Made by a program: the position numbers and the translations under genes
Shown here: positions 3,727 to 4,346 of the stretch, piece after piece
Position numbering within the stretch: position 1 is the stretch's first letter
How the letters are laid out: every line of letters starts with the position of its first letter
The notes under the pieces: generated by a model
Databases searched by the model: none
The model's input: only the letters and a program-made list of their open reading frames with translations
What the model was told of the DNA's origin: nothing
IMG/VR virus record: IMGVR_UViG_3300045988_013481
Location: 1-5,360 of that record
From: a virus
Direction: 5' to 3' (one strand)
DNA length: 5,360 nt

Positions 3727-3845
3727 TACAGTCTGGTGCCTCCTCTCATGTTTTTCGGACTGACGTTGACGGCCTTGGTCTTTTTTGCCGTCTGAGTAAA
3801 GATCTTTTTGTCTTTACTGCTGGTCATCTTCGTGCGTTTTGCCAT
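3726..3845 (-). CDS. Small basic DNA-binding/packaging protein (39 aa; gokushovirus ORF8 / phiX J analogue). Below the ORF-track size cutoff
   Basis: Hand translation: MAKRTKMTSSKDKKIFTQTAKKTKAVNVSPKNMRGGTRL. It is Lys/Arg-rich and has the C-terminal MRGGxRL ending I recall as characteristic of this family. SD AAGGAGGA lies 8 nt upstream. Confidence 0.75.
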   Translation of the reverse strand: MAKRTKMTSSKDKKIFTQTAKKTKAVNVSPKNMRGGTRL

Positions 3846-3957
3846 TGCTGTCATCCTCCTTGTCGTGCAGCGCGTGATAAATTTCGTCCAGCTTTTCGAG
3901 AATGTCCATCATGATTTTGATGGCTTTCTCGATACTCTTCACACTGATGATTGCCAC
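3814..3957 (-). CDS. Hypothetical protein, 47 aa (GTG start); amphipathic helix plus acidic tail
   Basis: GGAGGTGA lies 4 nt upstream of GTG 3957. Translation: VAIISVKSIEKAIKIMMDILEKLDEIYHALHDKEDDSNGKTHEDDQQ. It fills an otherwise unexplained 93-nt gap. No family recognised. Confidence 0.45.
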   Translation of the reverse strand: MAIISVKSIEKAIKIMMDILEKLDEIYHALHDKEDDSNGKTHEDDQQ

Positions 3958-4145
3958 TGTTTCACCTCCATTTCTGCCTTTTGGTCTTTGTATTTGTAGA
4001 TTTCTTCGATGATGGCTTTCGCCTCCTCTACAGTATACGCTCTTTTGAGCTGTCTGTAAAGCTTTCGGATAAAATATTCACATTCGTCCGGTGTTTCCGG
4101 CCCTCTGTATCCTTTATACAGTTCATGGTATGCTCTATCGTACAT
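3939..4145 (-). CDS. Hypothetical protein, 68 aa (ATG 4145; the track start GTG 4154 lies inside the SD)
   Basis: AGAGAGGTGA lies 5 nt upstream of ATG 4145. Translation: MYDRAYHELYKGYRGPETPDECEYFIRKLYRQLKRAYTVEEAKAIIEEIYKYKDQKAEMEVKQWQSSV. Predicted helical and Tyr/Lys/Glu-rich. No family recognised. Confidence 0.6.
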   Translation of the reverse strand: MYDRAYHELYKGYRGPETPDECEYFIRKLYRQLKRAYTVEEAKAIIEEIYKYKDQKAEMEVKQWQSSV

Positions 4146-4160
4146 TTTTGTCACCTCTCT

Positions 4161-4346
4161 TTACTGCTTTATCCAGTTTTCCGGGTCGAGTGCTTCCGTT
4201 GTTCCTAAGAGGTCCTTTTCGATGCGGTATATCTCGCCGTCGCTCTGGTCAACTATGTATCTGTATTTTTTGGTGTCGTAGATTCCTCCGTCGTACAGCT
4301 TGCTGATTGCGTTCACGTTCAGATGCCCTAAAGATTTTGCTTTCAT
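4161..4346 (-). CDS. Hypothetical protein, 61 aa; first gene after the promoter
   Basis: AGAGAGGT lies 7 nt upstream of ATG 4346 and about 19 nt downstream of the predicted transcription start. Translation: MKAKSLGHLNVNAISKLYDGGIYDTKKYRYIVDQSDGEIYRIEKDLLGTTEALDPENWIKQ. No family recognised. Confidence 0.6.
   Translation of the reverse strand: MKAKSLGHLNVNAISKLYDGGIYDTKKYRYIVDQSDGEIYRIEKDLLGTTEALDPENWIKQ

Follow-up and report, generated by a model that had tools for sequence, protein, structure and literature searches.

Small genes behind the only strong promoter of a gokushovirus: a probable exchangeable accessory gene and a conserved gene pair

What do the small genes directly behind the promoter of a gokushovirus do, and do they belong together? 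Gokushoviruses are among the most abundant phages of mammalian guts and their small genes are largely unannotated. The question is raised by IMG/VR virus record IMGVR_UViG_3300045988_013481, of which positions 1 to 5,360 (the window) were analysed. An original prediction, made from the sequence alone, had described three tandem open reading frames (ORFs), called A (61 aa), B (68 aa) and C (47 aa) in what follows, as one promoter-proximal module without recognisable microvirus counterpart. Bases 1-73 of the window recur exactly at 5288-5360, the assembly overlap of a circle; the window is therefore a circular gokushovirus genome of 5,287 nt. On its minus strand, which carries all of its genes, it encodes VP1 to VP5, a J-like small basic DNA-binding protein (J) and A, B and C. 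Gokushoviruses of human, pig and dog faeces, among them MG945135, KT264798 and KT264799, share 84-92% identity with it. A, B and C proved to be two different things, a swappable gene A and a B-C pair. That A occupies an accessory slot and that B and C form a unit acting in lysis or egress is, taken together, the explanation that we favour, with moderate confidence.

All three ORFs were found where they had been placed: A (ATG start) at 4161-4346, B (68 aa from its ATG; a 71-aa GTG form starts at 4154) at 3939-4145 and C (GTG start) at 3814-3957. The strong ribosome-binding sites (RBSs) described for them, AGAGAGGT, AGAGAGGTGA and GGAGGTGA, are all present, and the ENA, JGI and Logan assemblies each independently call A, B and C. 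Clustered at 90% identity, their proteins gave 134 (A), 121 (B) and 213 (C) clusters, nearly all of the same length, unnamed or 'hypothetical', and almost all on contigs of up to ~5.9 kb, a few on contigs of ~6.5-16 kb. With more than 100 homologue clusters each in gut gokushoviruses, the three ORFs do have microvirus counterparts, and B had even been annotated, wrongly as VP5, in KT264799. For comparison, 80 viral contigs were fetched through the C gene (236 contigs carry one), about 15 GenBank genomes were added and all genes were mapped. Clade 1 comprises 41 of these loci including the window; C was the search key and is hence present in all of them by selection. The ratio of nonsynonymous to synonymous change (omega; Nei-Gojobori, 13-37 distinct sequences) was 0.33 for A, 0.22 for B and 0.25 for C. 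The off-frames of the same DNA gave 0.5-1.6 (0.66 and 1.10 for A) and were rich in stop codons, so that the proposed check of synteny and substitution ratios revealed frame-specific purifying selection with omega of 0.22-0.33. For J and VP5 the values were 0.05 and 0.09; judged by these ratios, A, B and C are constrained, less tightly than J and VP5. Start codons and RBS sequences of all three are conserved in relatives. On this evidence A, B and C are almost certainly real protein-coding genes under purifying selection.

The alternative that A, B and C are not functional proteins, and that their conservation comes from DNA-level constraint (origin, packaging signal, RNA structure) or from gene overlap, is already close to refuted and can be given very little weight. 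It could draw on the tail of C, which is conserved only through overlap with J, and on the nearby small ORFs at 4418-4531 and 4525-4623, which are artefacts of conserved non-coding DNA and iterons. However, the purifying selection is frame-specific, starts and RBSs are conserved, the AlphaFold2 models of A and B are confident and a search of the window against Rfam gave no match. Moreover, across clades the synonymous sites of the C core are saturated (proportion of synonymous differences, pS, 0.71), whereas its protein was kept (proportion of nonsynonymous differences, pN, 0.16).

Searches for known relatives of the proteins, which had also been suggested, placed none of the three in a characterised family: Pfam, PHROGs and NCBIfam returned sub-threshold noise only (DotY, SapB_1, DUF3452; E >= 0.01) and PDB sequence profiles nothing significant (GA-module and CC-Type2 matches with E > 0.1). 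Structure prediction gave confident models of A and B, for which Foldseek found no PDB structure at E 0.001 (best E ~0.5-1). By these searches neither B nor C falls into a described family. A transmembrane (TM) segment is absent from all three, as had been noticed; the maximal Kyte-Doolittle mean over 19 residues is 0.18 for A, -0.33 for B and 1.16 for C. Conservation and purifying selection were thus found and homology to a characterised family was not, all in keeping with the original prediction.

The prediction failed where it joined the three ORFs into one module. In clade 1 the gene order is VP4, non-coding region, variable slot, B, C, J, VP5, VP3, VP1 and VP2, the slot being the stretch between the promoter and B. 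This stretch is hypervariable among genomes that are otherwise ~85-92% identical: nine contents were seen in the 41 loci, namely A; A and X1; X1; X2; X3; X3 and X2; X4; X3 and X5; or nothing detected, X1 to X5 being mutually unrelated ORFs of ~58-68 aa. A is present in 13 of the 41 loci, swappable for other cassettes, and also occurs in a third clade; among the 40 clade-1 relatives, all fetched via the C gene, 39 showed B. From this distribution it is highly probable that A sits in an exchangeable accessory slot, whose cassettes are gained and lost at RBS-ATG junctions. The view that the extra ORFs are the variable part of such genomes is therefore right for A and its slot but not for B and C, of which C is the most conserved across clades. 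Identical copies of A were found on nine contigs, one of them from a human gut metagenome, and a relative of A (hhalign 96%, E 6e-9) is among the small ORFs of a 108-kb viral contig (L113); the neighbours of that homologue and the further slot cassettes gave no informative Pfam matches.

The slot begins behind a sigma-70-type promoter, TTGACA-17-TATAAT with an extended -10 TG, at 4400..4372 on the minus strand. It is the sole 12/12 match in the window, where the next-best candidates reach 10/12, so the claim of a single strong promoter is borne out. The promoter 29-mer (with no or one change) stands 54 nt upstream of the start of A, both in the window and in the majority of those A-bearing relatives whose slot is complete. 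In one of them (L002) the promoter is identical although the A homologue is only 54% identical; in another (L036), with an A homologue of 52% identity, the promoter has diverged and the distance is equal (54 nt). An exception is MG945135 (L001), which has the A gene and no match to the promoter pattern. As far as these sequences tell, the promoter travels with A.

A trace of cassette exchange was found in the window itself. The initiation regions of A and B had been reported to share a 10-mer, and the plus-strand copies of ACCTCTCTTT are indeed exact at 4354-4363 and 4153-4162, with a one-mismatch copy at 3028-3037, before VP1. These three matches compare with 0.46 expected, and three were reached in 0 of 200 shuffles. 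The 10-mer is, however, simply the local ribosome-binding consensus AAAGAGAGGT and not a feature special to A and B. The 15-nt A-B spacer agagaggtgacaaaa (4146..4160, minus strand), which holds the RBS of B, is identical to the A-X1 spacer of MG945135, and other relatives have a different sequence before B. This identity indicates that the window lost X1 by precise deletion at the "...acaaaaATG" junction and that the A-B spacer is the scar; B now uses the RBS inherited from the deleted X1, which explains why it shares the 10-mer with A.

The slot of one close relative holds a recognisable anti-defence gene. KT264799, ~92% identical to the window, carries X3 and X5, and X5, an unannotated 66-aa ORF at 3702-3902 of KT264799.1 (L003), matched AcrIC5 (PF22147) with E 5.7e-21 and 74.8 bits at a cutoff of 27, and PDB entry 7yhr, 'Anti-CRISPR protein Type I-C5', with E 6.7e-9. 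Experiments have validated AcrIC5 as an inhibitor of type I-C CRISPR, and its homologues occur in Proteobacteria, Firmicutes and Actinobacteria (PMC7913775). An account of anti-CRISPRs in Microviridae was not met with in the literature searched. As a separate observation, microvirus MG945373 has a 47%-identical copy of the AcrIC5 homologue between VP2 and VP4.

Does A, then, counter host defence as well? The AlphaFold2 model of A is an alpha+beta fold (predicted local distance difference test, pLDDT, 86). A had no match among known families and folds (Pfam, PHROGs, NCBIfam, PDB profiles, Foldseek), and in BFVD the only Foldseek match was an uncharacterised Microviridae homologue. Matches to A from Advenella, seen in a scan of 185,579 species genomes, were dismissed as chance; they fell on the conserved N-terminal motif YRIEKDLLGT of a 480-aa enzyme, which from its sequence we take to be an aspartate ammonia-lyase/fumarase, and arose because this motif had served as the search seed. 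Because of its position, patchiness and mobility, A could quite conceivably be a counter-defence or host-range related protein, a reading to which we give serious weight, somewhat short of calling it probable. Such a host-interaction protein would be made first and abundantly upon infection. All three ORFs had been put forward as anti-defence candidates; the AcrIC5 homologue in the slot of KT264799 lends positional support to A, but B and C are not patchy. Several points weigh against this reading of A. Neither A nor B nor C matched PF22147, so A is not an AcrIC5 homologue; a recognised anti-defence gene is one of six cassette families (A and X1 to X5) and was seen in one fetched genome; and the slot could hold other accessory genes, for example for superinfection exclusion or host takeover.

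The closest known parallel to the slot are anti-CRISPR and anti-defence loci such as those with AcrIC5 (Leon et al. 2021, PMC7913775), in which small, unrelated and rapidly exchanged genes likewise occupy a fixed place behind a strong promoter, and the slot of KT264799 carries a true AcrIC5 homologue. Unlike those loci, the window has no recognisable helix-turn-helix (HTH) Aca regulator downstream, B having no HTH family or fold match; A matches no known anti-defence family; and the carrier is a 5.3-kb single-stranded DNA (ssDNA) microvirus, whereas the known loci are in dsDNA phages. The accessory genes described for microviruses are peptidases and methyltransferases (PMC9239249), and an accessory island of this kind in microviruses was not described in the literature searched. 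Phages with 5-kb ssDNA genomes would thus keep a promoter-proximal exchangeable slot able to carry an anti-CRISPR, and A together with X1 to X4 would be a small, tractable pool of candidate counter-defence proteins, short enough for direct synthesis and testing.

B and C behave differently. Clade 2 (53 loci), whose VP1 and VP4 are ~46% identical to those of clade 1, has the order VP4, further sequence, M15_3 peptidase, C, hyp76, J and VP5 onward, and a third group (KT264790, L107-L109) has the order A, C', hyp76 and J. The AlphaFold2 model of B consists of three helices (residues 3-11, 19-35 and 39-67; mean pLDDT 85), in agreement with the helical look noted earlier. B and the 75-aa hyp76 were aligned by hhalign with 81% probability and E 1.2e-5 over 42 columns, tblastn alone being not significant; B is probably a distant homologue of the clade-2 hyp76. 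A mosaic genome, IMGVR_UViG_3300045988_007768 (L110), bears on the same question: its backbone is of clade 1 (identity to the window 81% for VP1 and 85% for both VP4 and J), but the small genes at 3400-4225 form a region that is of the KT264790 type and carries A (54%), C' and hyp76' instead of B and C. This is evidence of a recombination confined to the small-gene region and suggests that the B-C and C'-hyp76' pairs are interchangeable. We consider it likely that B and C are a functional unit. As to the VP5 label, the coding sequence at 4049-4255 of KT264799.1 that bears it (ALS03635.1) is a B homologue; B as VP5 was rejected, since it has no Phage_ORF5 match and the true VP5 of the window lies at 3484-3726. 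The real VP5 homologue of KT264799.1, at 4468-4707, is unannotated.

Going by these alignments, no protein is better conserved between clades 1 and 2 than C, at 69% identity (J 55%; VP1, VP2 and VP4 46% each; VP5 39%; VP3 31%). DNA-level constraint and recent transfer were rejected as causes, because synonymous sites are saturated across clades; with pN low at the same time, the constraint acts at the protein level. It is concentrated in a core of codons 1-32 (3862..3957, minus strand; omega 0.14), an amphipathic, heptad-patterned helix with the motif KLDEIYHA and an 18-residue hydrophobic moment of 0.67. The amphipathic helical periodicity of this core is strong, its whole-length hydrophobic moment being matched by only 28 of 10,000 shuffles, in line with the predicted helical character. 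The acidic tail (codons 33-47 and stop; 3814..3861, minus strand) is present as described but is another matter: it overlaps the RBS and start of the J-like gene, whose Shine-Dalgarno sequence AAGGAGG (3855-3861) encodes K-E-D of the tail in the C frame. Codons 35-47 are under no purifying selection in that frame (median omega 0.65, pooled pN/pS 1.7), and the tail is truncated in some relatives and short and different in clade 2. The acidic tail is thus a side effect of this overlap. The likely start of the J-like gene is its second ATG (3845); the resulting 39-aa form is the one called by independent gene callers.

A profile of C found 31 clusters among 1.84 billion representative proteins, essentially all of them short stand-alone peptides. 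No credible fusion to other domains was seen in that set, the few longer entries being mis-called or chimeric. In the 185,579 species genomes C had no relatives and no bacterial carrier, and the scan gave no prophage or host clue. The C gene was found in 36 GenBank records, all of mammalian-gut gokushoviruses; 31 of them annotate nothing at that position, and the remaining labels are mis-assignments or 'hypothetical'. C is thus an overlooked microprotein, more conserved than the capsid or replication proteins.

What the B-C pair does was approached by elimination and synteny. The mechanism of host lysis by gokushoviruses is unknown (PMC7062461), and they have no known lysis gene apart from acquired peptidases (PMC7062461; PMC3394797). 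When all frames of the coding strand were scanned in the window and nine relatives, no ORF of 25 aa or more had a 19-residue Kyte-Doolittle mean of 1.6 or above. Phages of the window type, including those with an M15 peptidase, therefore have neither a holin nor a phiX174 E-type protein as far as TM-like segments tell, and appear to encode no membrane protein. A being dispensable, B and C are the only conserved genes left unassigned, and C follows the Peptidase_M15_3 gene, a candidate endolysin, by a few bases in 53 of 53 clade-2 loci. Elimination and this synteny together make it possible, though hardly probable, that the B-C unit acts in lysis or egress. C, as an amphipathic helix, would oligomerise or act on the membrane, alone or with B, and this would free the peptidase or otherwise compromise the envelope. 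A little more doubtful is the specific version that B-C (C-hyp76 elsewhere) is the missing gokushovirus lysis or egress system, TM-free and built around a 32-aa microprotein, with the horizontally acquired M15 peptidase added beside it later, so that a lysis cassette arose. If true, this would be the more interesting outcome, since B-C would be a concrete two-gene candidate for the missing function.

A number of observations speak against a lysis or egress role. C is acidic, looks soluble and is conserved to an unusual degree, whereas fast divergence is the rule for lysis proteins. It persists in clade 1, where there is no peptidase, and clade 2 has the peptidase plus C-hyp76, so that the roles of the two could be unrelated. 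The adjacency to J, VP5 and VP3 fits morphogenesis equally well. For this role, as for that proposed for A, the searches of Pfam, PHROGs, NCBIfam, PDB sequences and Foldseek provided no functional or homology support.

An assembly or packaging role is nearly as plausible as a lysis role. B and C would then be morphogenesis or DNA-packaging helpers, chaperones or assembly factors working with J, VP5 and the VP3 scaffold. They stand directly upstream of J-VP5-VP3-VP1 in all cases, on one transcript; C overlaps the J start and carries the Shine-Dalgarno sequence of J; the strong RBSs and the nearness of the promoter suggest stoichiometric amounts; and the high conservation of C would suit a partner within the conserved virus machinery. 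Yet these partners have diverged far more than C (J 55%, VP5 39% and VP3 31% against 69%), C adjoins the peptidase and not J in 53 of 53 clade-2 loci, and, going by the published lists, such ORFs are missing from the six genes of enterobacterial gokushovirus prophages, of which one has been brought back as an infectious phage (PMC7062461). On balance we regard this role as unlikely. A regulatory role is less plausible again. B, alone or together with C, would repress the promoter in the manner of an Aca protein, or would tune transcription or replication by binding the TGTTGAAA iterons, a binding that the original prediction had suggested. Anti-CRISPR loci typically combine a strong promoter and variable acr genes with a small regulator after them, and B, which is small, helical and constant, comes right after the variable slot; upstream of the promoter there are eight iterons, conserved across clades as C is. 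But B has no match to a helix-turn-helix or other DNA-binding family, its predicted helices (9, 17 and 29 residues long) do not resemble an HTH and matched only generic helical hairpins in Foldseek (E >= ~1), B is near neutral (isoelectric point 6.6) and C acidic, and the iteron sequence is constant whether a genome has B or the very different hyp76.

Equally improbable is the reading closest to the original prediction, in which A, B and C are a single host-takeover or anti-defence module and B and C are counter-defence or host-shutoff factors as well. The three genes share a promoter and lie in or next to a slot able to hold an anti-CRISPR, and all are small and without known homologues, as is typical for anti-defence proteins. 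Anti-defence genes are normally patchy, however, like A and unlike B and C, with B in 39 of the 40 clade-1 relatives and C conserved across clades whose VP1 is 46% identical. The accessory slot with A and the B-C unit with a possible role in lysis or egress thus remain the explanation that we prefer.

Among known systems, the B-C region can be compared with that of the M15_3 peptidase, a putative endolysin, of human-gut gokushoviruses, for which Roux et al. (2012; PMC3394797) had noted unknown ORFs adjacent to the peptidase. The position between VP4 and VP5 is the same, and C and hyp76 of clade 2 directly follow the peptidase; the window differs in having no peptidase and B in its place. The small neighbour ORFs are unannotated in nearly all GenBank records. 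Like the small genes of phiX174-type phages (E lysis, K, C, A*, J), A, B and C encode very small proteins in a compact ssDNA genome, and by elimination some of them must supply functions such as lysis. They differ from those genes in several ways: there is no sequence similarity (Pfam, PHROGs), E needs a TM helix and none exists in the window ORFs, the VP5 and J counterparts of the window are separate genes, and A, B and C are not overprinted save for short end overlaps. Chlamydia phage Chp2 (ORF6/7) and Bdellovibrio phage phiMH2K (ORFs N and W-Z) have small, unassigned ORFs between the replication and assembly genes, a position shared by A, B and C; in contrast, members of the C family came only from gokushoviruses of mammalian-gut metagenomes. 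The C core also resembles Staphylococcus aureus delta-toxin and the phenol-soluble modulins in length, hydrophobic moment (0.67 versus 0.66 for delta-toxin) and low mean hydrophobicity, and higher-order coiled coils in its a/d/e(g) heptad pattern. These resemblances are of physical properties and not of homology, and, unlike the cytolytic peptides, C is net acidic.

The remaining genes of the window, all on the minus strand, were assigned as follows. J (3726-3854 in its 42-aa form) matched phrog_10695 with E 8e-9, VP5 (3484-3726) matched Phage_ORF5 (PF20577) with E 4.5e-16 and VP3, within 3018-3668, matched Chlamy_scaf with E 7.8e-25; VP1 lies at 1390-3021 and VP2 at 546-1352. The VP4 replication protein (phrog_942) runs across the junction, with its N-terminal part at ~3-545 and its C-terminal part at 4813-5358. 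Since hairpins follow VP1 and VP4, the promoter most plausibly drives A-B-C-J-VP5-VP3-VP1 in that order, with read-through into VP2 and VP4, and A, B and C would, as foreseen, be the first genes on the transcript from the only strong promoter. The first hairpin, at 1378..1357 on the coding strand between VP1 and VP2, is terminator-like (8 bp with 7 G-C pairs, then ATTTTT) and, by analogy with phiX174-type phages, suggests attenuation beyond the capsid gene. The second, at 4767-4805 just 3' of the VP4 stop, is an inverted repeat of 15 perfectly paired bp around a 9-nt loop, with a T-rich run behind it; its DNA fold amounts to -17 kcal/mol (z = -8.4), and it is likely an end-of-operon terminator, an ssDNA hairpin or both.

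The iteron TGTTGAAA occurs in eight direct minus-strand copies at 4523-4653, against a chance expectation of 0.23, and these stand 125-280 nt upstream of the promoter. Clades 1, 2 and 3 all repeat this octamer, despite a VP4 identity of only ~45% between clades, and it is unchanged between genomes with B and those with hyp76. A 32-aa ORF at 4525-4623 was rejected as a gene; it is a by-product of the iteron repeats and its frame is lost in relatives. Likewise, the ORF at 4418-4531, whose frame is lost in relatives, is not a gene and coincides with a conserved G+C-rich non-coding element (4436-4534) between the iterons and the promoter. As ssDNA this element has no significant structure (z = 0.9), and it was found in no clade-2 locus. 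Its conservation amounts to 85-99% in 25 of the 41 clade-1 loci and to 88-94% in the otherwise distant gokushoviruses KT264790, MG945657 and KT264788/9; an origin or a primosome site are possibilities.

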